A stretch of DNA of 63,276 nt, filler included, from Intoshia linei (Eukaryota > Animalia > Orthonectida): assembly GCA_001642005.1 (NCBI GenBank). It is 6 parts of 6 records of this genome, joined end to end, with 100 filler letters (N's around TTAATTAATTAA, not from the genome) between each part and the next. Parts side by side here need not be neighbours in the genome. Positions count along the whole stretch, not along the records: positions 39,916 to 52,333 come from LWCA01001081.1; 5 more parts are not named here. One strand, 5' to 3'. Below the pieces are notes generated by a model. It was not told the origin of the DNA. It did not search any database and worked only from the letters and a program-made list of their open reading frames with translations. The position numbers and the translations under genes are program-made. This document shows, one piece after another, positions 22,501 to 62,945 of the stretch; the first letter of the stretch is position 1, and every line of letters begins with the position of its first letter.

Positions 22501-23891
22501 TTGTATCATGATTCATGATTCATTCACAAGTGTAATTTCTTCACACATGAAGAATCATAGTAAATGGTGCACTATTTTATTTGATAATCATTTTTCATAA
22601 AGTTTGGAATGGTTGGACTAGAACAGGGGTGCACAATGTACGGCCGCATGCGTCTGTGAGAGCGTTTATGTGCGGCCGTGGGCAATACATCTGATCATAA
22701 TAAATTATAACAAATTTTATAATGTTATAACAAATGATCATAACAAATTGAAAAGTTAAAATGAGATTTTATTCAAGGTCTATTTAAAATATTTTAATCA
22801 AAAAGTTACATTCTTGACTTTGCCCCAGTTTCTCAAATGTTAGCGAAGGACACAAAAAATCAAGGCAGTCACTGATATCTTTTTTTATTTCATTATTCAT
22901 ATTTACATATTTTTTTATGTCTTCCACTCTAATGTATCAACAAATCGGTTTTTAATGGAACTTTTTTCTGTTGTCCAATTATTATTAATTATTTATCGAA
23001 AAATTAATGATTAATGTTTTTAAAAAAAAATATTAATAAAAAGAGATTTTTAAAATTATTTTTAAATTAGGTTTTTTTTATGGAATCAGTCAGAAGAATT
23101 ATTAATCTAAAAATTTCGTAAAAGGGATTTTTCATAAAAATATTGGTAAAAGCGATTTTTTTCTTTAAGGGTTGTTAAAATTTGGTTTTTTCTTTTAGAA
23201 TCAGATAGGGTAGTTTTTATTCTAAAACTTTGGTAAAAATGGATTTTTAAAAAAAATATTGGTAAAAATAGATTTATTCCTTAAGGGTTGGTAAAATTTT
23301 GATTTTTTACCATAAGATTATATTAAATTGGATGATTTAATGAAATATGTTGAAAATTGTAGATTTGCCTACAATCATCTAAATTTTCGTATTCACCCCT
23401 TGGGGTGACCAGTTACCCTCATGAGAAGCACTGCATTAATCCTACTATTGCTATTTATTCCGATTCAGATAAATGACAAATATGGTGTTAATTTATATGA
23501 GTAAATTAAGGATTAATTTTAATTGAAAATTATTAATTAAAATTTAAAGAAAACTATTTTATTAGACCTAAAATTTAGGTCCAGAGTAAATTTTCTCAAT
23601 GTCGAAGTAAAATTTGTGCGGCCGTACTATCAATGAGAAAAGTAGCATTGTAGCTAAATTGGTGGAAAGGTTTTGCACCCCTGGACTAGAATATAAAATT
23701 TAATCGTTTCATGTGATTAATTTTGACAATTTATACATTAATGATTAGTATATTTAGACGTATTTACAAAAAGAAAAATATTAAATGTATTATTTTGGGC
23801 CAGTTGCTCATTATTTTGTGGAAAAATAATTTTTATATATGGAACCTGCTTTGTTGATAAACCCACTCTAATAAAAGTAAAGAAAGATTGA
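19550..23891 (+). CDS. SACM1L: Phosphatidylinositide phosphatase SAC1, multi-exon
   Basis: SRRGRNSAGTRFYRRGCDEYGNVANFVETEQ, IRGSVPLLWCQYPNLKYKP, catalytic RTNCIDCLDRTNVTQ and WADNADMLSIQYAGTKALKTDFTR; two C-terminal TM segments; KxKxx end (KVKKD*). Confidence 0.93.
19733..19899. mobile_element. Short hAT-like MITE in a SAC1 intron
   Basis: Termini CACTGGTTCCCCAA and TTGGGAACCGCTG; TSD not preserved. Confidence 0.5.
22624..23683. mobile_element. Non-autonomous hAT (Buster/Charlie-type) element in the last SAC1 intron
   Basis: CAGGGGTGCA ... TGCACCCCTG TIRs with a perfect 8-bp TSD GACTAGAA (22616-22623 and 23684-23691; NNNTANNN pattern). Confidence 0.92.
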
Positions 23892-23988: not shown

Positions 23989-24972
23989 CATTAGACAACA
24001 CTGAAAAATACAGTTGCATAAAAATAATACCATCTTGTGGATAATCTAACACTGATTTCAATGATATATTATATTTATAAATTTTAGTTCATATAACCCA
24101 TTTATTAATACTTTTAATGTTGAAAAAAATATAACAAGGTTTCACTTCCATTCTTAAATTGAGTAATTATATCATTCAAAATAATGTTTACATTAAAAAG
24201 GTGAAGTTTTATAAGTTTGAATATTTATTTATTAATTTAAAATACATGCGTGCGAAATAAACGAAACATTATTATTGCTTTTTCTGTGTTGTATATTTGC
24301 CAAACATTAAAAAATCTTACTCTATAACTGATAAATGTAAAAATTTGATAATGCAAATATACAGTTTAATATACGAGAATCAACTTTGAAATCCCTCAAA
24401 TCTATATCAAACGTGCCATTCGTCTATAATGAGATTTAAAAAGAGATTTGTGACATCTAAAATATGGAAACATTCAGAAAGTGCGAATGACTGCTATTTC
24501 TATATTCTGAAAAGAAGAAAACAAAGCCTGAATAAATTAAGCCTTTACTTGTATCCGGCCACCAAAAGTTTAACTTTACCAATTCCAATGGAATTATATA
24601 ATTTAGTTTCATCATCTCAAGAAACAGTTGTTTCAATGTATACTGAGGAATATCCAAATCAACCAATTATTTATACAGAAAAAAAAATTTAATTTATTAA
24701 TATATTTTTTTTAAATATAAATAGCTAATAACCTTTTGATACTAATAAACTGTAAATAAAACTGATAACTAATCGAACTAAACCTTTTCCGTAAATCTGG
24801 ATTTAGACACTAGAATGTATTGTTANNNNNNNNNNNNNNNNNNNNNNNNNNNNNNNNNNNNNNNNNNNNTTAATTAATTAANNNNNNNNNNNNNNNNNNN
24901 NNNNNNNNNNNNNNNNNNNNNNNNNGGTCTCATGCAGATCCTCGAAAAAAGTTTTCATTTTGTTGTCTAGTG
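23989..24972 (+). mobile_element. Chapaev3-like (CMC) transposon relic spanning spacer 1
   Basis: Ends CATTAGACAACA and TGTTGTCTAGTG with a TAA flank on each side. Decayed N-terminal Cys-rich coding: YCFFC...SITD...IWKHSESANDCYFY...YPATKSLTLPIP. Confidence 0.55.
24826..24925. other. Assembly spacer 1
   Basis: N44 + TTAATTAATTAA (stops in all six frames) + N44 = 100 bp. Confidence 0.98.
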
Positions 24973-35060: not shown

Positions 35061-35160
35061 NNNNNNNNNNNNNNNNNNNNNNNNNNNNNNNNNNNNNNNN
35101 NNNNTTAATTAATTAANNNNNNNNNNNNNNNNNNNNNNNNNNNNNNNNNNNNNNNNNNNN
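35061..35160. other. Assembly spacer 2
   Basis: N44-TTAATTAATTAA-N44. Confidence 0.98.
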
Positions 35161-39815: not shown

Positions 39816-39915
39816 NNNNNNNNNNNNNNNNNNNNNNNNNNNNNNNNNNNNNNNNNNNNTTAATTAATTAANNNNNNNNNNNNNNNNNNNNNNNNNNNNN
39901 NNNNNNNNNNNNNNN
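39816..39915. other. Assembly spacer 3
   Basis: N44-TTAATTAATTAA-N44. Confidence 0.98.
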
Positions 39916-40076
39916 TGTATTTATATATTGTTCAAAAGTAGTTCATTATATGTGGAGTGGGTACCGGAATTTTACATATTTAACTCCTTCTCTAGCAATA
40001 TTATTAAATGATATATTTGTTACAAATTTTTATAACATTTTATTATGAAAATAAAGTTTAATTTAAACTTTTTAGG

Positions 40077-40433
40077 GAAAAATTTCGATGTCGAATGGCC
40101 GGGTCTAAACTCAACCAATTTGAATAATTTTTTTAGAAAAGTGATCACCCTAATATACGTCTTTGGTTCATATGATATTTTTTTACTAAATCCATATTTT
40201 TATATACATTCTATTGATATTATCAAGGTTTTATTACACATTTCTACAGTATTGGTTGGATTTACTGCAATGTTATTTTCTCATGAAACAGACATGTTTT
40301 TACATATTAATAATAACTTTTTTCTTTTATCGAGAATTGCATATTTTTTTCTGTCAAGATATGCTGAAACTGTACTTTTATTTAACGCCAAATGTACATT
40401 ACACAAAGCATGGCATTCTATAATATTTAAAAG
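40077..40433 (+). CDS. Probable internal exon of an unidentified membrane protein (boundaries approximate)
   Basis: Open frame of ~119 codons bounded by TTTTAG and GTATTT, with several hydrophobic segments; no recognised family motif. Confidence 0.4.
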
Positions 40434-40487
40434 GTATTTGGTAAAAAATAATATTAGACATTTATTATCAATTAAATAATTGAATTA

Positions 40488-42405
40488 CAGTCAAATCTGC
40501 ATAATCCGAACATTGTATAATTCGAACATTGCGACTTTGAACAAATTATAGTATATTTTTTTACGGTTACTATACAATGAGAAAATTTTAATTTGAACAT
40601 TAAACTAAAAATATTTTCGAATATTAAGACAATTCAAATATATTATCATTTTATAGCGTGATTTTTTATTTTTTATATTGTAAGTATGAAGAATAAAAGA
40701 AAACAAGTAGACTTAAATTTAAAGGAAAAAAAAGATATTATTTGTTTCTATGATTAGAATCCACATTGTTTACAGCGGGAACTGGCAATTAAATTTAAAA
40801 TTTCCTTAGGTAAATATATTTAAGCTTTTTATAATATTAATAATGATAGGTACAATAAATAGAATCTTATCAAATAAGGAAAAACTTTTACAAATTGATG
40901 ATAACAGAAATAAAAGACAACGCAAACTTTCGAAAACGAATGCAATTGACAGCACTTTATTTAAATGGTTAGTTAGTAGACGTCATATGTATCATTCCAT
41001 ATCTGGCGATAGTCTCAAAATAATGGCCTTGAAATTAGCAGAATCTGCTAATATATTTAATTTTTGTGCCTCAACCGGATGGCTGAATTCCTTTAGAAAT
41101 AGATATAATATAAAATCAAAATTTTTGAAAGGAGAGTCAGGCTTCGTACCCGAAAGTTTGATTGATAATTTTAAACCTATTTACAAAAACAAATTAAAAG
41201 AATATAATTTTGACAATATATTTTATTGGTGATGAAACTGGTTTACTGTATAAAGGCACCGGAAATAGAAGTTTAGTAGCACATAATGACACTAACTTAA
41301 GCTATAAACAATATAAAGATAGGTTAACCATTTTATTTTGTGCCAGTATGTCTGGAGAAATTTTGGCATTATTGGTTATTGGTAAAGCTAAAAATATAAG
41401 ATGCTTTAATGGAAAACAAAAAACCTTTAAAAAGTTAAGTGTAGAATATTTTCACTCTAGAAATGCTTGGATGACTGCTGTTATATTCAACAATTGGTTA
41501 CTTAATTTAAATACAAAAATAAAAATTGAAAAATTTTGTTAACACTTGATAACGCACCAGTGCATTTTTATGGAATAGAATTGTCCAACATAGATTTCCT
41601 TTTTTATCCAAAAAATACTACGTCAAAATTGCAACCCTTAGACCAAGGTATAATAAAAGCATTCAAGGATAAATATAAATCCATTACGAAAAATAAGATA
41701 TTGTTTGAACTTGATAACATACATGATATTGATTATGAAACACATTTTGATTCAATAAAAAAAATAGACGTTTATGAGGCCCTGCTATCTATAAATCAGG
41801 CTTGGAGAGAGGTGTCGAATACGACAATTTCCAATTGTTGGAATAATGCAATAACAAATTCTAATATTGAATCAGATTACGAAATCGATATTATATTTGA
41901 AAATATATATGAAAAAATTTCTGAATCTGATAATATATTCATAAAACAATTCAGTGAAAATGAGAGGATGAAAATAGAGCAAGAGGATGAATGTACCAAA
42001 TCAACCATACCTGAAAACGATAAGTAGCTGCTTAAATTCAACTATTTAATCTATATTTTAGAATTATAACATTTCAACAATGTTGCAAATCGGTCGATGA
42101 CCTGGAATCGTGGTTTATGAACAATTGCAATGAAAAATTTAATTTAGTCTGGGATATAAGAGAGGTTTTGGTAGACCACAAAAGAAAATCCCAGTTTAAA
42201 ATAACTGATTATTTTAAACAAAAATAGATAATCCATTTATTAATTGAAATGTATAGTTAAACCAGTAATAAATATTTATAAGAATAAATAGCATTTTAAT
42301 AGTGTTCAGAATTATGTTTATATTTATATATATATTATATTATTGCGAATTATGAACTTTTTATTAAATCTATCCCAGGGTGTTCAGATTATACAGATTT
42401 GACTG
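40488..42405 (+). mobile_element. Full-length pogo/Tigger DNA transposon with disrupted transposase (40686-~42227)
   Basis: 25-bp TIRs CAGTCAAATCTG(C/T)ATAATC(C/T)GAACA and TA TSD. HTH-CENPB (ASTGWLNSFRNRY) and DDE motifs DETGL, DNAPVH and LQPLDQGII. One in-frame TAG and two frameshifts. Confidence 0.95.
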
Positions 42406-42649
42406 TATATTTAATTTTTTTTTCTAGAATACAAAATAAAAATCAGAGGTAAAGAAAATGTTATAATGATAATTTATTCATTTACATTGTTAATAAAATT
42501 GATATCTATAACTTGCAGTATAAAAGATTTTTAAATTTTCAAAGTGTTGATGAAATATTTTGTAACATCTTTACTTATATAATATGATACGCAATATTTG
42601 TTTGTGTGTGTAACCGTTTATTTCAATAACTACAAGACTTAGAATTTTA

Positions 42650-43100
42650 TAAACTCCACATTTCAATTACAGTTTTTTCCGGGTGATAATAAGATAAATT
42701 TCAACCGCACAAACTCACATCTTACGAAATAAAACACCAATTGTTTTTTTTTTGAAAATCAAACGAGTTGGAGAATTTAAAAAAATATATACACTGATAC
42801 GGACTTTAAAATCATAAACATTATCATACATTTGACATTCCCAAAGGTGCAGAAATAGATGAAAAAATAGTAATTTAACCTTTAAAAAGAAATTTGAAAT
42901 TATATTTTTTACCAAACCTTAAAAGTATGGTTTTTGTAACTACCCCTGAGCAAATTTTCCGATTTTTTTTTAACCATAACCTTGAAAGGGAATTTTGGTT
43001 TATTATTTTTAAATTCCCTTTAATGTTTAATTCAGAAAATCTAAACAAACCCTTCCTATACCTATTAAGATTCAAATTAATTAAAGATTTTAAGGGATAT
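42650..43100 (+). repeat. Dispersed repeat family A copy
   Basis: Similar to 6668-7085 (inverted) and 10570-10800. Confidence 0.55.
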
Positions 43101-44335
43101 CTAGCAAGATTAAAATATAATTACTAATAGTAATAATTTTATTTTTAACGATTAAATCTACACCGAAAAAGTTAATAAAATTATCTAATACAGGAATAGT
43201 GTACAGTTTACTAAGCGGAATTTAAGTTTTTATGGTTATAATTTCATGTGTCGATAGTATCCAGACACGTACAAGTAAAATGATTGTATCGCTAATAATA
43301 ACATTACCCAAAGAATCCAAGAAAACTAAATATTTTTTATTCCGTTAAAGAAAGAAGTCCAGTTTAATCGTTGAAATTGCTTGTAAATATTTGAAGTGAA
43401 AAAACACGCACAGTCAAATTTAAAATTTAAGTCGGCAGACAGACATAAAGTTGAAAAATAAATGTTAACTTGTTTCGATGTCATTTATTTCATAATCATA
43501 ACATGAAACAATTATTTTATCACTGCATATTATCGGGAGGATTTGGAGCGGCAACTACCATTTTTATAAAAAAATTTCTAACAAGTGAAACTACTTTTAC
43601 GGTAATGACTTTGATTAATCTTTTAAGGTTCACAACTTAGATGTTTACAAATTTGGCCATAATCTTAATATTTAATGTAATTATGTGGTATTTTTCCATA
43701 AATGCATTGGATTCGTCTTCTTCCACAGCAATGGCAGAATGTCTTATTACTTTTTTTAATATCATTTTTTCGGTAATGTCAATTATACCCTTCACGACGA
43801 CTAAAATATATTTAGACGATATTTGCAATCGCGATACACCAAACACAGTATTCATTAAAATTTATAATTGGAGTAATTTTTGTTAGTTTTGGTATAATGT
43901 TGTATAATTAAAATTAATCAAAATAGTATTGATCTCTTTTGCTCTTGCATATTGCTTTTCTAGCTTTTTTCCGTGGTGTAGATAATTTGACATTTCTAAG
44001 AATGGATTCATATGTGTTAAACGACAAATCGCACCTTTTTATAAAAATTTTCACCTCCACGTCAGAATCGTATTCGACTGATTTCAGTTTGGGAGTTGAG
44101 TTTCTCATATAATTCCGCACTAATCGTTGTGCCGCGTGATCTACGTAAATCGAATCTGATTCGTAATGCATTTTTAAAAATATGAATGAATAGTGGCTAT
44201 TCTATTTGGATAATTAGCGTAATGGATCAAAACATAAAAACCTAATAAAATGTAAAATAATTTAATATTGAATTACATATTTAATTTACAAATGGAATAA
44301 AATTATGGAACTATACCAAATTTAAAAGACGTACA

Positions 44336-47300
44336 TTATCTTTTTCTACCACCTCTCTCTTTAATTAGAAGAATAAATATGTCGTTACTCTTAATATTGT
44401 AGTGAGCCAATGAATTCATATCCTTAGCAAACAAACCCTATATATTAATTTATTGTAAAAATAGTAAATTACTCCAATTTGTATCTTTTGTTTTCCATTG
44501 GGTAGTTTCGTTTGTTCGCATATAAAATTTTTCACATCAGTTATCTAACAATAGTTTATAGTTATACAGAAAAATAGTAACACTAGCCATAATTGGGAAT
44601 ACGTTTTCCAATGTTCTTCCATCTAATTTCCAATCTGTTTTATCAGACACAACTGGTATTTGAATTTTGACAGTGATATCGTCAGGATTTAAAGCAGAAT
44701 ATTCTCCTTCTGGAATAAAGTGGTCATCCTTTGGCCTTTTCGGTCTCATAAACATTTGCTCGTGGCGCATCGGCATTCCCATGGGATGAAATGGAGGCAT
44801 AGGGTGTGGATTCATCATAGGCATAGGTCTAATCATATGCATTGGCTGGGGCGGTGGTAGCTGAATCATGGGAATATTTATTCCTGGTCCAGGAGGCATG
44901 TACTGCGATTTCATTTGTTCTGGTTTTGGTCTCATAACGTGTTGAATCTTTACCGATTCAGACATTTTTATATTTTCAGATGGTGGCTCTGATATGTTCA
45001 TTTTGTCAACTTTTTTGGGCCCAATTTTCTCTTTGTCTTCGTCGTGGCTAAATATTACATTAATAAAAAGTAAAATAGTTTTATTTCATCATAAAACAAC
45101 TAAAATTAAAATTTGAAAAAGTATCTGAATCAATCACTATAAACATAAATATTTATACATCAAAAGCAAGCAATAACACAACTATATACAACCATGAACA
45201 ATCTTCATTTACAAGACTCATATGACATAAACACAGAGATATCTAAAAAATATTAGTGAAATGAACTTCCATCAATTAGAAAATAATGATGATTTAATCG
45301 ATCAGGTAAAAAAATTAAAGGGTTCTAAGTTTTTCATGCGTGAAAAAGATTATATTCTCAATAGTCCGCTGATCAATGATGACCTGGTACATTTTTACAA
45401 TTATTCTGATAACCCGTCAGCCACTGATAATATACAAAAAAATCATTTACTATGGTCAACCCATTCCACTCAATGCATAGATCCAACCTTTAATACCAAT
45501 ACCCTATTTAACATATTAATCTTATATTATCATGATCCCACTGAAAATGTATTTAAAACATATAAGAAAATAATAACCATATTCAAACATGAATATAATG
45601 TACCTTCATGTTTAATTAAGACCACACAAACTTTCAACAGCTTAAACATCAATAACAATTTAAATGAACGAATAGATCATTTTCAAGAAAATGTTAGATT
45701 CATCTTAGAGAGTAATTCCACTCAAAATGTTTTTTCTTCTGAGTGGTCGAATCAGAATTATCTCAGAAATAGTTAATATAGCTAATTCTATGGGAGTTGT
45801 TGATAGACGAAATTTGTTGACCCGCATCTCTGCAATGTATCGAATATCCGTTCAATATTATATTTTAAAAGATAACCATTGGGAATGTGAAATTAAAACT
45901 ACCCCATTTGGACCGATTTTATTTAACGACCATGATTTTTGGTTCGAAAAACATTCATTAATTAGAAATCTCAACTCAATGCTAAATATAAAAGATATCT
46001 TAAACTCCAGAATCAACTCTGTAATATGTATTTCACTTCTGAACACGTTCTTATACACCTCACTTTATATATACCCTATTCAAGTTTTACAAAGCCGGAT
46101 ATACTCTTATCTAGGTCTGGTGACAACGGTTATGAAGTTATTAAGAAAATAAAGCCTTTATGCAATGCAATTTTTTATAAAATTGTCAGAGCGTAATCTA
46201 TCTATAAAATCGGACAGTGATTTTCACGAGGTAATAAAAAATGCTTATCTTGAATTACTCTCCAAATAGAATATAATAGAGGGTACATCTTAATGCCTTG
46301 ACATAATCTACAACACAACTAATTAATACAATCTTCAATTTCTATTGGGGTGTTACCGACATTGGGGACATCCATTCATAGACTACATACCGTCAACATA
46401 TCAGACATTAAAAAATTAAACCTAAAAATTAGTTATAATAGAACTCATAAATTTAAGTTACCAGGAATTCGAAACTTATGTACTTACCAACATATAATTA
46501 CGGAAAAATCGAACTATGTATAAAAAATTTTTAATAAACCTCTTGTGTTCTACATCTCTCAAAGTAAAAATATATTAAAATGTCACGCCTCTTTAAAGAT
46601 AGGTCTAATAACCATTAATAAAGACATTATTATAAAACCCCAAATAAACAACATCAATATAAATACAGATAAATTGAATTTTGATTTTTTAAGAACCCTT
46701 AACGTAATAACATAAATACCAGGCCTTTGTACTTTGAAACCACATGAAATCAAATTGACTGACAACAATGCTGGAATAAAATCCCATAACTTTCCCACAC
46801 TCTAATAGTAATATCTTAAGTTTAATATCTACTGACAATAAAATATTAGAGGAAATAGATAGATTGGGGCAAATTTACCCTCAACAAGTAATATGCGTTC
46901 GCCAAAATTATCATCAATATCATATCAATGTACAAATTCACATTAAAACAAGAGGAAATGAAAGATATTAAAATCGAAATTCCATTTAATCGAGCAAATG
47001 GATTCATAAAATTTTTCATCATTTCTCAATTTAAATTAGTGTCAATAAAACTACGGTTGGAGATTTTTTTTAAAAATTATATAATTTGAAAATTCAAAAA
47101 AATGAAATGTTAATAAGTAATTGAATAAGTTGCCACACAGATTCAACTGAATTAATAAATATTTGGAATAAAAATTATAATTACGTTCATGTTTTAATAC
47201 ATTACTCTCCTTAATCTTGATCAAACGTATAATTACTGATAATATATTATGTTAATCATACAACTTATCCATCCAGGGTCATATAATGGTCCGATCATCA

Positions 47301-50300
47301 CAGGCATATTATTCTAGATACGAGGTCCCAAACTGATTTGGTCTACCGCCCTCCCCTTTTAGCAATGTTTCCAACGCCCTTGAAAAATTTTCGAGTCAGG
47401 GTGCACAACCTTTCCATCAATTATGCCGCAAAGCCACTTTACGCATTGATACTACGGCCACACAAAATTTAATTTGACTTTAAGAAAGTTTAAATCCATT
47501 TGAGAAAGTGAGCAAAATCAAAAATGTAACATTTTGATAAAAATATTTCCCTTGAATTTGAAGTAAAATGATATATTGTAACATGATTACATCGATTGCC
47601 CACCGTCGCATATAAACGTTATCACGGCTACATGCGGTCGTAAGGCCGCAGGTTGCGCACCCCAAGCTTGCGATATAAAACTCCCCTTATAACCAAAAAA
47701 TTCATCAATCCCCCACTCTATTATATTATTCTATACTATATCATATTTTTTAAAATCGCCCAGTCGCTTCCAACAGAATTAATTCCTCACTTTGGGAACC
47801 CCTGTTCTAGATCAATAGGTGATTTTAGGAAAATTGTTCGTATGAGCAAATTTTTGTTAATCCAGCAGAGTAATGGTGAAAAAAAGATTGGAAACCGTTG
47901 TATTATACAATAAATAGAGGAAACAAAAAAACATTGTATATGCATAATTGTGTATACTAAATGCACTATATAAGCCTTTATGTTGGGGTTTTAATCCTTT
48001 TTATATAATTGTATATCATTCCACCCAATATTCCACGTATGAGTGGAACTTTTGTATTTTCGCAAAAAAGTGAAAAAATTCACACCCTCTAATATATGGT
48101 CTACATTTTTAATCTAATTTTGATTTTTTCAAATTTATTTAATCCGAATGAAAATGTTTGGTGTGACTAATTTAAAATGTACAACATTAAGGTATCATAA
48201 ATCATTTATACATATATTTACAAATTATCACCGAAATTTGAAAATATTCAGAAACTAAAAACAGTTCCTTTTAGTTTTAACAGTATAAATATAAATATTT
48301 TTCCCTGTAATAGGACAATCGTAATTTTTCATATATAGTCATAAAGAAAATTCAAGAATTAATAAAATTAAAATGACACAAAACCAAAAAATTTCATAAC
48401 CAGGCACATTCATTAAAACAAACTAAATTATAAATGTTAGTTTTACTTGGGTTGTCACTGATTTGCTAAAAAATAGCTGAAAAAAATTACACAAGTCCCT
48501 GAGATCTATGAATAATTTTGATTTGATCTTCAATTGTAATATCTTTCCTAGCGCGTTGTGAAACACTTTCAATAGACGAAGCATGTCCATCCCAAGTGAT
48601 TCTTTCTTCCTGTTTAGGTTTACTAGAAGTGTCTTCACCAATCTGAAAAAATTGTAACCAAAAATTAATTAGTGCAAACCTTTCTACCAATTTGTGCTTC
48701 TTCAGATCCGTAACCGAAAATGTCAGTTCTACGTTCCGCTAACCTTTTAAGGTTAGAACTAACATTCATTCCAGTAGCCAAAATAGCTGCAGCTTGATGT
48801 TTATCTGCCATTCGTTCTCTTTCGCGATTATTTATCCAACTTGGATCCAATAACCCTAAATTGTAAATAGAAACAAATTATTAAAATATTACCATATCTC
48901 ATGTGATCTGAAACATCGTTCGATGTCATTTTTTGTTGAGTGAGTGGGGAAATAAAATTTAAATTTTGATCCGACATGTTCTGTTTGCTGGCTAAAATAC
49001 AATATACGCTGTCTCATGATACATTTACCTTTTGGGTCATAATTGTGCCTTACAATACTCTCTGGACCTGGAACAGCTGGCGGTGGCATTAAATGATCAT
49101 CATTGAAATTAGAATCCACAGAAATCTGTGGAGTATCGGGTATCGATTGTTTCTATAATTAATACATCAATTTCACGTGTCAATAAATATTATAAAATTA
49201 AAATTTAAAACAATCACTTGAAAATAAACCAAAAAACAGATTTTTTAAATTGATGGTTAAAATATACGTTTCTGCTACTTAATATTTGAAATAATAAATT
49301 ATTACCACGGGTTCAACTTCATTATCTAAACTTCCCAGTTGATAGTTGCTTTCAGAAAATCTACTTTCCTCTAAAACACGATTTCCCACCTCTTCTGGAG
49401 TAGTAGGTGGAGGAAAATTGCCATACTCTGTAGACTTATAATCTACGACTTCAACAACGACAAAAGAGTGCCAATCAATCTGAGAATACAAAATTCTCTG
49501 TCGTTCGGCATTAGCCATTTCTTTTTCCTGTTGACATTTACGATATTTGCACCAACGTACACGATAAGCAATGTTTTCATTAATCTTAAAAAAATAATAA
49601 ACTACCGCCCAAAGTTCTATACCTTTCTAACAGATATTGACATGTCATTAATCTCATTAATCATTGATCTTTTCGGTAAAAATACTTTAGAATACTGACT
49701 GACGAGTTTTGTAAAATATGGATAATAACTATGTTGTGGTTTCAAAAAGTCAAATTGAGAATTTCTACTTTCTCTGGAAAGAAGATTATCAAGAAAAGAT
49801 CTTCCATTCCTAGCAACAAATGTGGCAGTTAATTTCAAGGTATCTCTAAAATATAAATACAAAAAATATAAAAAAATGTAACAATTCATCCAAGTTTATT
49901 GTAGGAGCATCTACAATAAAAGTCAATTCTGATGGTGGATCCTTTAATGGTGGTTCATCGATAATTTTCAATTGTTGCATATTATTAATGGTAGATTTTA
50001 GTGTGGTTCTCTATTAAAATTTACAATGAAAAAATATTTCATAAACCTTGGAATCTTCCTTCGTTTTTTCAGCTAAATTTTAATGAAATCATGATATATG
50101 CCTAAATTACGCTTTCCATCTTTACATTCTTTTACTTTCTGTTGATAATATGCGTGATAGGGATCTCCAGTATTGAGAAAATTAAATTTAGTGTTGTTTT
50201 CTTCATTTTTTCGAATTCGATTAACAAAATCAGTTCCCATTCGTGATACATAATCAGCGGTAGTGTCAATAATGTCTGAAAACGTATTAAAACATAAAAT

Positions 50301-50379
50301 TTGCAATGTTACTTCTTATTTCTATAGGAGGATTAATAACACCAATCTCCGAATTTGTGCTTTCATTTTGTTGAACCAT
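44336..50379 (-). CDS. SF3A1: Splicing factor 3A subunit 1 (SF3a120/Prp21), multi-exon
   Basis: Two SURP domains (IIDTTADYVSRMG, LKLTATFVARNG...FDFLKPQHSY); YSQIDWHSFVVVE, NLKRLAERRTDIFG, ITWDGHASS, Pro/Met-rich region; ubiquitin-like C-terminus ending KERGGRKR*. Large intron 45048-48490. Confidence 0.95.
45194..46386 (+). pseudogene. Endogenous viral element: N-terminal part of a rhabdovirus-like (Mononegavirales) L polymerase gene
   Basis: Collinear motifs across frameshifts: KDYILNSPLINDD, FGPILF...WFEK...MLNIKDILNSR, GDNGYEVIKKIKPLCN and GCYRHWGHPFIDY (46348-46386). Recalled VSV/rabies L equivalents are DYNLNSPLISDD, LGPTF...LLMVKDVIIGR, GNFSYDLIKMVEPICN and G(S/C)(F/Y)RHWGHP(F/Y)IDY. 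No introns; several stops. Confidence 0.88.
46387..46905 (+). mobile_element. Ty3/Gypsy pol fragment (protease C-terminal half to RT start) abutting the viral insert
   Basis: LVFYISQSKNILKCHASLKIGLITIN (retropepsin C-terminal pattern), PGLCTLKPHEIKLTDN (protease-RT linker) and LEEIDRLG..PSTSNMRSP (RT N-terminal EEIxxL..PSxSxWASP pattern). Confidence 0.65.
47320..47804. mobile_element. hAT MITE in the large SF3A1 intron
   Basis: Perfect 8-bp TSD TTCTAGAT (47312-47319 and 47805-47812); right TIR TTTGGGAACCCCTG; left TIR degenerate. Confidence 0.8.
47397..47664. mobile_element. Second hAT MITE nested in the previous one; same family as 22624-23683
   Basis: CAGGGTGCACAACC ... GGTTGCGCACCCC. The first ~100 bp match the reverse complement of 23590-23683. 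Confidence 0.75.
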
Positions 50380-50694
50380 TGTCACCAATTAATATTTTTA
50401 TGAGTTGAGAACCGAACAAATAATAACTTTAGGATATTATCGTTATCGTTATAGTAATGTGATGGTGAAGCAGCGTTGTCATGAATCATGATTTAATATA
50501 AATTTTTTATTGTAATTTATTATTCATTTTAAAAATACCATTTTACATTTACATCTAAATTTAATTACAAGAAAACCAAGAGCCTTACAAAATTCATACA
50601 TTTATTTGAAAAATTTACAAATCTTGACATTATTGTGATTTTTACAGGGTTTTCTATTTTACAGCATTAAATACGGTTGGCGAAGTTCAAAATA

Positions 50695-51686
50695 TTAGTT
50701 TGAGTATTTAGTAGCAATGTAGTTTTGCAATATGGCGTTAATATTTGGTGGACATTTTATATTGATTCCAATATCTATCCATTTCAGTGGAATCTAAATT
50801 AAATGCATATAATTGTACAATGTACATCTCAATCTGGGTGATTTGGCTTTGGGTGACATTTAAAATTTTGACTCCAAATTTCAGAAAACACATTTTTTAG
50901 TTTACTGTTTTAAGAATGAATAATACATCAAATTCACATTCTTCGCAAAAGGTAACGGCAGAAAGATCACAGTGATTGTTAATCAAATATTGATATAGTA
51001 AAAATGCAATGGCTTTATCTACAACGTCGTTATTGTCAATGGCCTCGCAACTTTTATAATTTTCACTGTGATTTTGTATTGTTTTCCGAGACAATGACGA
51101 TTCTCTGGAGGCATTTTCTGAAATTTCGCAATTTTTTTTTAAATCTAATTTGAAAATAATAATAATTATAAAATAATAAAACTAAACCATTCGTGACACA
51201 TTTTCTCAATGTTTTTATTGTTTCGCGTGACTTACGAAGTTCATATTCCAATACTAAAATTTAGTAAATAAAAACAACAAATTTCACATTACAAGAAATT
51301 TTATGTTTGTCTTTTCTACTGTCGAAATTGACGGAATTGAATGAATATAAAGAAGGTGTTTCCAAATTAACATCTTGAATAGAATCGGTAATTTCCAGGT
51401 TGGAATCAGATTCAGAATAACTCACATTTTCCTTCTTTTTTTCAATACAATACTCGTTCAATTTGTCATCTTCAAGTTTGATAAAGTTTAGCGGATTATT
51501 AAAATATTCTTGTAAACATTTTACTTTAATGTTTTTTTCGTTTAATTCTGAATATAACTCTAATGCAGTCAAAATTAATTTTTCATCTAACAGCATTTCC
51601 CCCATTGATTCCCAATTTGACATTTTTTCATGAGAGGATCGGCGTACTGAATGTTCAATGTTTGAATCACTCTCATTTTTTTCCAT
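50695..51686 (-). CDS. RELCH: RELCH/KIAA1468-like protein, N-terminal coiled-coil and LisH only
   Basis: LLDEKLILTALELYSEL...LQEYFNNPLNF, LEYELRKSRETIKTLR, LisH AIAFLLYQYLINNHCDLSAVTFCEE and WIDIGINIKCPPNI, then TAA at 50697-50695. Confidence 0.8.
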
Positions 51687-52333
51687 GAAATTTTATACTT
51701 TTATATTAGAGTAAAAATTATTGGATTACGTTTAAACTAATTTTGTATCCCTAGATTTATTGAAACTAAAATATTTTCAATTTTTATATATAATATAATT
51801 AACAATTGACTTTTACATTAATACAAATATAGATACTGGAATTTTTATGATTTCCCAAAAAAAATTGTGAACAAATTAAAAAATAAATAATATCCAACAT
51901 TTGGATAAAATATGAAGTTAAAGATGATAAATCAGTGTGTAAGGTACGAAAAAATGATATGTTGCAAATTGATGATAAAATTAAATGGTTTTTAATCATA
52001 GGATTTAGTAAATAATGTTTTCAAAAAAATATTGGAAAAAGGATTTTTTTATTGAGGGTTAGTAAAATTTGTTTTTTTATTTTGTGTTTTGGATTTAGAA
52101 GTTGTTTATAAAATTTAGTAAAATCGGATTTTTCAAAATACAGTGGTTTCTGTACAATATGAATGTCAAGGGACCGGATATTTAGAATATTCATAATAAA
52201 GTTGGTCGTACAATATGAATGAAGAATGAAGTGAATATTAACTCAAATATATTAAGACAATTAACAAATATATAAGTATAGTATTTATTTTTGCAATGGA
52301 AAATAGTTTGTAATTTTGTTGCTATTTTCAATT

Positions 52334-52433
52334 NNNNNNNNNNNNNNNNNNNNNNNNNNNNNNNNNNNNNNNNNNNNTTAATTAATTAANNNNNNNNNNN
52401 NNNNNNNNNNNNNNNNNNNNNNNNNNNNNNNNN
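52334..52433. other. Assembly spacer 4
   Basis: N44-TTAATTAATTAA-N44. Confidence 0.98.
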
Positions 52434-60473: not shown

Positions 60474-60573
60474 NNNNNNNNNNNNNNNNNNNNNNNNNNN
60501 NNNNNNNNNNNNNNNNNTTAATTAATTAANNNNNNNNNNNNNNNNNNNNNNNNNNNNNNNNNNNNNNNNNNNN
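60474..60573. other. Assembly spacer 5
   Basis: N44-TTAATTAATTAA-N44. Confidence 0.98.
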
Positions 60574-61149: not shown

Positions 61150-62945
61150 TATAAAACCCTGACTTTATTCTTTCTTGCATAAGACACGGCATTATATCTT
61201 TTTTTGTTAATCGTAACCCCATTAAAATACAGGATAATGCGTTATCCCAATTTTCATCATGGCACACTGTACGCAATCTTTTAGGTATCGTTCTATTCAT
61301 ACGCTCAACCAACCCATTTGTTGATGTTGATGCTGGTATGGGGCAGAATGGGTTTTATGTATCTTATATAGATTACATAAACGTGACATTACATCGCCTT
61401 CAAACTGTTGAGCCATATCAAAATGGATTATTTTTGGTGATCCAAACTTGCAAATGATGTGAGCCAATATGGCATCCGAGATTGAAACAGCATCAATATG
61501 TGCTAAAGGGGCGGTTCCACCCACCCTGAGAAATGATCCACCATAACTAAGATGTAACAATTAGAATTTACTGTTTCGGGTAACGGACTTAGAACGTCTA
61601 CCTGCCATAAATCATTAAAATAATTGGATTCCACGTGTGTCAAAGGTTTACAACGATTATGGTTTCTGTGTTTGTTAGTATTACAATCCGTACATTTAGT
61701 TATATAGTGTTTAATATCACGATACATATACGGCCAAAAAAATGTGGTACGAATATTAGAAAATGTTTTTTGTAGTCCAGGATGACAAAATGCCTGTGAC
61801 TCATGATAAAATTGAATTATAATTAGTATGTTGGCTTCCGTTACTAAAATAAGTGAGATTTTTTTACGACGAAGATATACTATTTGATTGTTTACATAAA
61901 TATTCAAATTTTTTCCAAGGATTAAATAACAACATTGTTTCACCATGTAAGATTTATTGAAGATATATGTTATTTTGAATTTGAGGAATATCTAAACCTG
62001 TATATTTTATAGCATCACATCCTTATTTCCAGTACGAGATAATAAATCCTCTGTATAATTTACCAGGACGATATTCTAATGAATAATCAAATTCATCCAG
62101 TTTTAACATTCAACGTATCAATTTCGGTGAAAGATTTTGAGACTTCCTCTGGTGATGTATCGGATTATGATTTGTAATTATAGTCACATGCCACTTTAAA
62201 ATATACTGTCTAAACTTCTGTAAATTTTTTAGTGTAACAAACTTTTTATTGATACAATTAACTTGAGAACCAGTATCTAACATAAAATTTAAACGAACCT
62301 TGTCACTCATATGGTCAAAAGACAATTCCTCAACAATATTTTCCTGATTATAAATTGCATTAACATTGACATTCGTATTGATTGAAATTTGTTTCTTTGA
62401 TTTGGCACTTTACGTGAAATATAAGTTTATTACAATTGTAACTTTTCATTGGTTAATTGACTTGCTGAGACTTATGTACTTCAATGATGCCACTATATTT
62501 CAAGCAAATATATTTGCAATCACTCCATTTCAACAAATCCTGCAAAAATAATTCTGTTTCAATTTTGCTACAATTGATACCAAAGCATAATTGATCACGC
62601 AGTCGTTCATTAATATCCTTAAATTCACATTGCCGTGAAACCTTATGGAGACGGCAAATATAATGTTCAATGCGTTCATGGGGATATCGTTCCGTTTTTT
62701 GAAAATTCTTTTGATTTAATGAAACGTTAACTGATTCTCATTTGAGAACCTCAGTTTTATAACTCGTGTATTGGATTTTACATTTGATTCCTCTAAACGT
62801 CTCCGAGCCTCTTTACCGATTAAATCTTTGAATAAAATGAATTGCTTATCCATATCCATTTTGGTGTCGCTTTTGGAATTCCATTGCACGATTAATTCAA
62901 AGTTTTCAATCCACTCGGTTGGCGTTATCGAAAATTCGCCATTAG
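61150..62945 (-). mobile_element. Degenerate Ty3/Gypsy LTR-retrotransposon internal region
   Basis: gag (TEWIENFELI); protease FMLDTGSQVNCI; RNase H tail LDEFDYSLEYRPGK; integrase HHCC (HES..CHPG..FFWP..CTDC) and core WQVDV...LVMVDHFSGWVE. Confidence 0.9.

Follow-up and report, generated by a model that had tools for sequence, protein, structure and literature searches.

How did a fragment of a mononegaviral L gene come to lie directly beside Gypsy-like sequence, in the same sense, within an intron of the orthonectid Intoshia linei? The locus lies in a stretch of 63,276 nucleotides from assembly GCA_001642005.1, here called the window, in which six parts of six records are joined end to end and positions 39,916 to 52,333 derive from LWCA01001081.1. 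A preliminary description, made from the sequence alone, placed an abrupt end of the L similarity at position 46386 and a start of Gypsy pol within a few bases, and considered the join to be a candidate product of template switching during reverse transcription. One precedent for such an event, the recombination of LCMV with the mouse IAP element, is reportedly the work of Geuking in 2009. The window has a GC content of about 26% and the host genome is compact and AT-rich. The filler segments between the parts (24826-24925, 35061-35160, 39816-39915, 52334-52433 and 60474-60573), each made up of 44 N, a 12-nt palindromic linker and 44 N, all lie outside the element.

The host gene carries Surp and PRP21_like_P domains, from which we take it to be PRP21/SF3A1-like. 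Its longest intron, which contains the locus, is skipped exactly in spliced contigs from runs X2, X3 and X6 (Table 1). It is about 90 times the usual intron length, the remaining introns of the gene measuring 35-38 nt and 153 nt. The L fragment and the Gypsy-like scrap both lie wholly inside this intron, on the strand opposite to that of the host gene, and the element is now a non-coding relic that is removed from the host message by splicing. An Rfam search of 45000-48600 yielded no matches.

Table 1. Features of the locus and of its surroundings, with positions counted along the whole window
Feature	Positions	Strand	Evidence
PRP21/SF3A1-like gene exons	49282-49895	-	Surp PF01805 E 8e-21, PRP21_like_P PF12230 E 8e-17
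Host exon upstream of intron	48491-48642	-	spliced contigs, runs X2, X3, X6
3443-nt GT-AG intron of PRP21/SF3A1-like gene	45048-48490	-	joint 45047>48491, CT..AC ends
Host exon downstream of intron	44582-45047	-	spliced contigs, runs X3, X6
Decayed N-terminal part of rhabdovirus-like L gene	45194-46386	+	profile, PF00946, PDB
Likely L continuation, GLxKL region to KKWFVN-like region	46387-46539	+	HMMER, blastx, register tests
Likely virus/retroelement junction zone	46512-46542	+	L and Gypsy-like protease likeness overlap, different frames
Likely Ty3/gypsy pol scrap (protease end, linker, first RT residues)	46512-46904	+	custom profiles
High-copy MITE-like repeat, same intron	47399-47662	.	13-bp terminal inverted repeats 47399-47411/47650-47662
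Gypsy relic	61503-62737	-	integrase zinc-binding domain PF17921 E 5e-17
Broken Tc5/pogo-type DDE transposase	40810-42027	+	PF03221, PF03184, three frames

The L fossil is a real non-retroviral EVE with homology to mononegaviral L. Both the L-like sequence and the HWGHPFIDY motif, with its end at 46386, were recognised at the outset and are borne out by a match of 45901-46401 to Mononeg_RNA_pol (PF00946, E 7e-9, 34.4 bits against a cut-off of 27) and by a PDB search that gave just three matches, one to rabies L (6ueb, E 2.6e-7) and two to chains of VSV L. Reference L proteins were collected by a motif scan of viral contigs, in which 61 candidates reduced to 31 loci; a profile was built from 30 of these, L005 being partial and left out. 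A frameshift-aware alignment against this profile scored 142 bits and ran collinearly from column 4 (45243) to column 368 (46384). Only the 5' fifth of L is kept, starting at column 4 of the profile and with a candidate ATG at 45194, and it is about 20-25% identical to the retrieved L proteins. The label rhabdovirus-like is provisional and applies within that motif-picked set. Decay is evident from frame breaks near 45727, 46045, 46097 and 46194, probably with another before 45243, and from in-frame stops at 46267, 46291 and 46324.

A contig from run X1 links a host exon to the element, placing the EVE in host DNA with host flanks. The best gene-start signal before L, using a profile built from 27 of the 30 reference loci, was weak (5.6 bits at 45165, a score reached about 5% of the time by chance in a 30-nt zone); scores at the 5' end of L were 5.6 and 3.7 bits against 2.4-16 for the references, and no convincing gene-end signal was found before L. 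No other L-like stretches were detected across the window, and a homologue search with the L piece (323 candidates of at most 2000 aa) was blank.

Elsewhere a second L-like copy is present in contigs of 740-756 nt (X1 record 2 and X2 record 5) and in X6 record 7. It could be matched to the window over 43 nt (46324-46366) with 8 differences, and it carries an in-frame stop in its loose end. Two residues past the motif it shares with the window a proline that is found in none of the 30 reference L proteins, and after this proline it reads G-L, as do all 30 references, so that it continues as L past the motif; viral origin in the window thus reaches at least 46392. The second copy is likely to be a further degraded EVE from the virus lineage seen in the window, and its presence implies that this lineage entered DNA more than once or that the copy was duplicated.

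The assertion that L stops right after HWGHPFIDY, with the GLxKL continuation absent, was not borne out. HMMER and blastx carry the L likeness on to 46539, across a stop at 46495 and two further frame breaks, one within 46393-46406 and the other near 46446. Two ungapped diagonals, 46407-46445 (profile columns 372-384) and 46447-46539 (columns 385-415), adjoin one another in both DNA and profile, and their 19 bits over 44 codons come close, per codon, to what the accepted L part yields (66.6 bits over some 150 codons). The score of each register, picked post hoc, was reached by none of 2000 shuffles of its own residues. The register of 46447-46539 is the best of 75 (z 4.3, the next 2.0) and that of 46407-46445 ties with another (z 3.1 against 3.2). 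In a banded L test past the motif 11, 15 and 20 of 400 DNA shuffles did as well; the same test, when calibrated on ten pieces of accepted L, placed seven above all shuffles and three not. Unbanded local L scoring of the downstream stretch was equalled by 21 of 200 shuffles, and blastx of the downstream DNA against 30 L proteins gave a best E of 2.8.

Beyond 46539 the likeness ends: the following 20 codons have an L score of z -1.6, and L likeness was not found there by shuffling (14/60). Alignment of the downstream segment to L, an outcome at odds with the junction as first described, was therefore found for the first 150 nt and not past 46539. Since L likeness continues to 46539, the peptide VNISDIKKLNL, which had been read as Gypsy pol, is likely to be L's own GLxKL stretch.

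It is quite unlikely that the switch nevertheless lies at 46386-46392 with Gypsy protease throughout what follows, a version of events that overlaps with both origins considered below. It would account for the single frame that is nearly open over 46389-46802, for the tied register at 46407 and for the L extension anchored at 46387, which was not significant (135/200 shuffles; 25-33/200 in another test) and was absent with a composition-adjusted background. Yet 46392-46511 showed no Gypsy protease likeness (202-329/400, and 242/500 and 184/500 shuffles), the best of the 75 registers directly adjoins the preceding one, and HMMER carries L across the proposed breakpoint. We consider it probable that L extends to about 46539, which brings the whole decayed L stretch on the + strand (45194-46539) to about 1.35 kb.

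The downstream peptides quoted in the preliminary description are present, mostly in one + frame. Over 46389-46802 this frame is interrupted by 2 stops in 138 codons, whereas the remaining two + frames contain 18 and 17, and its openness was equalled by 9 of 2000 shuffles in their own best frame; a coding origin is therefore indicated. Gypsy pols for comparison were gathered with an RT motif, giving 244 matches, of which 105 had an open upstream frame and 101 were left after removal of near-copies. A linker/RT-start profile of these 101 sequences picked 46719-46904 (20.1 bits, 3/300 shuffles) above all 160 other tiles of the window, the best of which scored 19.0 bits. The segment contains the motifs originally listed, in order, and four motifs stand in Gypsy order on one strand.

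For the part nearer to L, three pols with short linkers (L278-L280, three of the four loci found) aligned collinearly over 46512-46796, with shuffles doing as well in 2/1000 cases for 46512-46622, 7/1000 for 46512-46784 and 44/1000 for 46542-46622, and in 35/1000 for L279 alone. Free local alignment to the same three pols was weaker (94-131/1000 for their sum), and a three-sequence profile, whose alignment took another path, was equalled by 46/300 shuffles. A smaller Gypsy profile of 33 sequences gave 3/60 and 40/200 shuffles on the downstream stretch. Separately, 46937-47011 was considered as a Gypsy linker and rejected as a chance match (E 1.8-8.5).

General searches with the downstream piece were blank, with no matches in Pfam at E 1, in PDB at E 10, among 488 candidates or among 1.84 billion representatives. 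Plain HMMER with our own Gypsy profiles found no match on the downstream stretch, and blastx of the DNA gave a best E of 1.3 against 33 Gypsy pols and 0.9 against 101. No protease D-T/S-G site, RT core, RNase H or integrase was seen in 46387-47100. The scrap is cut before and after, stopping at 46904 with no LTR there, so that the lack of these domains speaks against an intact element and not against the origin.

These blanks, together with a protease piece that 247 of 500 shuffles equalled against 50 protease segments from the larger Gypsy set, are what would be expected if the downstream stretch had its coding origin in a different mobile element or virus gene, in which case the locus would be a plain viral fossil. 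We regard this as unlikely in view of the four ordered motifs, the linker/RT-start score that surpasses every other tile, the collinear short-linker pols and the lack of L likeness past 46539. A Gypsy origin is likely as judged from sequence comparison, by tests that are modest and in part post hoc (p about 0.01). The identification that a blastx-type check was expected to provide thus has modest support from custom profiles and none from library searches, and the description of Gypsy pol from a few bases past the motif is probably right for 46512-46904 and probably wrong for 46392-46511, where protease likeness is absent.

Where the two parts meet, an L sub-piece at 46513-46539 scores z 3.1 and the Gypsy likeness starts by 46512-46542, leaving no gap; L part and pol scrap are joined directly, in the same sense and with no spacer DNA. 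The join is likely to lie in this zone, some 125-155 nt further on than the breakpoint first given. The overlap of about 30 nt between the two likenesses is no evidence of microhomology, which is readable only against the parents.

A mis-join of the assembly is a further alternative, and the join is covered by run X1 only, which is perhaps the source sample, with no X4 contig placed there. Nevertheless, a separately built, read-derived X1 contig (record 1) spans the join at a flat depth of 11; it departs from the window at 9 letters over 44400-47473 and at 8 of the 2301 places of 45040-47340, and is ungapped throughout. Moreover, the host exons are spliced exactly around the element, and samples X2 and X3, from a second study, contain pieces of the L part that share two variant letters with X1, although none reaches the join; these pieces have a depth of 2-3 and say nothing on expression. 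An assembly chimera is therefore extremely improbable and in effect ruled out, but if X1 is the source sample the support is not biologically independent. Between the X1 contig and the window, the 8 differences in 2301 places of the intron stand beside none in the 1592 places of 48309-49900; the intron differences reflect either the existence of two insertion alleles or mistakes in the window sequence.

We tentatively prefer the reading that the L fragment and the Gypsy scrap arose by an RT template switch from retrotransposon RNA onto viral L RNA. An RT copying Gypsy RNA from 3' to 5' would have reached the protease region, jumped to a site about 1.35 kb into the L message, corresponding to the join at 46512-46542, and copied on towards the L 5' end. 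After entry of the hybrid cDNA into the intron, later deletion would have stripped it of its LTR and of the remainder of pol; alternatively, DNA repair may have inserted it as a fragment. Minus-strand copy-choice is an established retroviral mechanism, which we infer for this locus: the order of the parts, L 5' part followed by retroelement part with both in sense, fits such a switch. So does the retention of the 5' part of L, since a LINE that primed at a poly(A) tail would preserve the 3' end instead. The viral mRNA sense is co-oriented with the retroelement sense on the + strand, as originally reported, an arrangement that chance alone would give in half of all cases.

The absence of an LTR or TSD at the join was likewise confirmed. 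In the TSD search the longest shared word was 10 nt, a length reached by 156 of 300 shuffles and hence at chance level; no LTR pair and no long repeat of the piece elsewhere were found in the window, and no poly(A) was seen at the element. Deletion or a non-integrase insertion is therefore needed in any case. Since no second contig matched 46367-47040 at 80% identity in four runs, from which contigs may have been filtered out, no parent family was seen.

With other insertions in the intron, and with LTR, TSD and parent all lacking, the main competitor is that an L cDNA and a Gypsy element entered the enlarged intron separately, perhaps nested, and were later fused by deletions. We consider this possible, if less so than a template switch. 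The length of the intron and its further repeats, some of them nested, accord with it. The MITE-like repeat (Table 1), whose ends presumably resemble those of hAT-type elements, is itself apparently nested in an older repeat at about 47320-47810; it occurs in many contigs, whose depths add up to nearly 1000, and one joint in X1 skips 47353-47686. A copy related to the 47320-47810 repeat lies at 22639-23680. L part and Gypsy part are each decayed and cut at both ends. In addition, within another Gypsy relic of the window, at 62110-62406, the beginning of a protease is fused in frame to an RNase H-like piece, the RT apparently having been deleted, so that seamless deletion joins do occur in the window; homologue searches with the integrase of the window were blank. 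Ectopic recombination is also named alongside template switching as an origin of such loci in the available text of 10.1101/128637. Separate insertions would, however, require that the two parts happened to share their sense and that a deletion removed not only the remainder of L but also the 5' LTR, gag and the greater part of the protease of the Gypsy element, with no host DNA left in between; and no allele with intervening DNA was found in X1, the one run covering the join.

For the template switch that we prefer, the same-sense direct join and the published route carry over from the original proposal, while the breakpoint is likely shifted and neither LTR nor parent was seen. The stronger assertion, that the capture mechanism itself is preserved here, goes too far: both parts are decayed, and a nested insertion with subsequent deletion would look just like this. 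Decay has gone so far in this copy that it can neither prove the capture mechanism nor put it to the test.

Should the join be primary, the locus would record, in natural and inherited form, the capture of a negative-strand RNA virus by an LTR retroelement beyond the cases from mosquitoes and mouse cells and, with the second L-like copy, it would show that a divergent rhabdovirus-like lineage infected the host germ line. A far-reaching and very unlikely version is that a true switch between Gypsy RNA and the L message of a deeply divergent rhabdovirus-like virus left, in a compact-genome host from which few such cases are on record, a germ-line fossil that could feed antiviral small RNAs; each host pre-mRNA would then carry the complement of viral message, as antisense in a housekeeping splicing gene.

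Virus capture by way of LTR-retrotransposon RNA, cited at the outset as a known route, is indeed published (PMC6797480, PMC3205384, as far as their available text goes), and this locus is probably a new, decayed example of a virus-Gypsy chimera; a literature search without the host name found no description of it. Reports of chimeric cDNA and of EVEs in invertebrates are widespread, to judge from the accessible parts of PMC6338049 and 10.1101/2023.11.03.565523. The LINE-1-made EVEs such as the bornavirus EBLN are alike in being gene fossils in viral mRNA sense, but in the available portion of PMC3205384 LINE-made EVEs carry TSD and poly(A) and EBLN-type elements keep the 3' end, whereas here neither mark is seen and the 5' part is kept.

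The closest parallels come from mosquitoes. Rhabdovirus-like integrations in Aedes (NIRVS) include L and are enriched beside Ty3/gypsy, and template switching has been proposed for them (10.1101/128637, accessible text). The present locus resembles them in its rhabdovirus-type L fragment beside what is likely Ty3/gypsy sequence; unlike them, it consists of one heavily degraded copy lodged in a housekeeping-gene intron, within a compact AT-rich genome with introns of 35-38 nt, with no full-length element alongside and no piRNA-cluster context shown. In infected mosquito cells more than 200 hybrids of virus and LTR element were obtained, for which copy-choice with no need of homology was proposed, and a CFAV EVE lies inside Ty3/gypsy sequence (PMC6797480, in the part available). 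The direct virus-Gypsy joins of these Aag2 hybrids are like the probable one here, but they were sequenced during infection with known parents, whereas our locus lacks its parent and its join can be located to within about 30 nt. Finally, the recombination of LCMV cDNA with mouse IAP, as reviewed in the accessible part of PMC3205384, similarly joined RNA-virus sequence to an LTR retroelement as DNA; that event was somatic and experimental and involved an arenavirus and an ERV, whereas Intoshia carries what is probably an inherited mononegavirus fossil with a Gypsy-like scrap.
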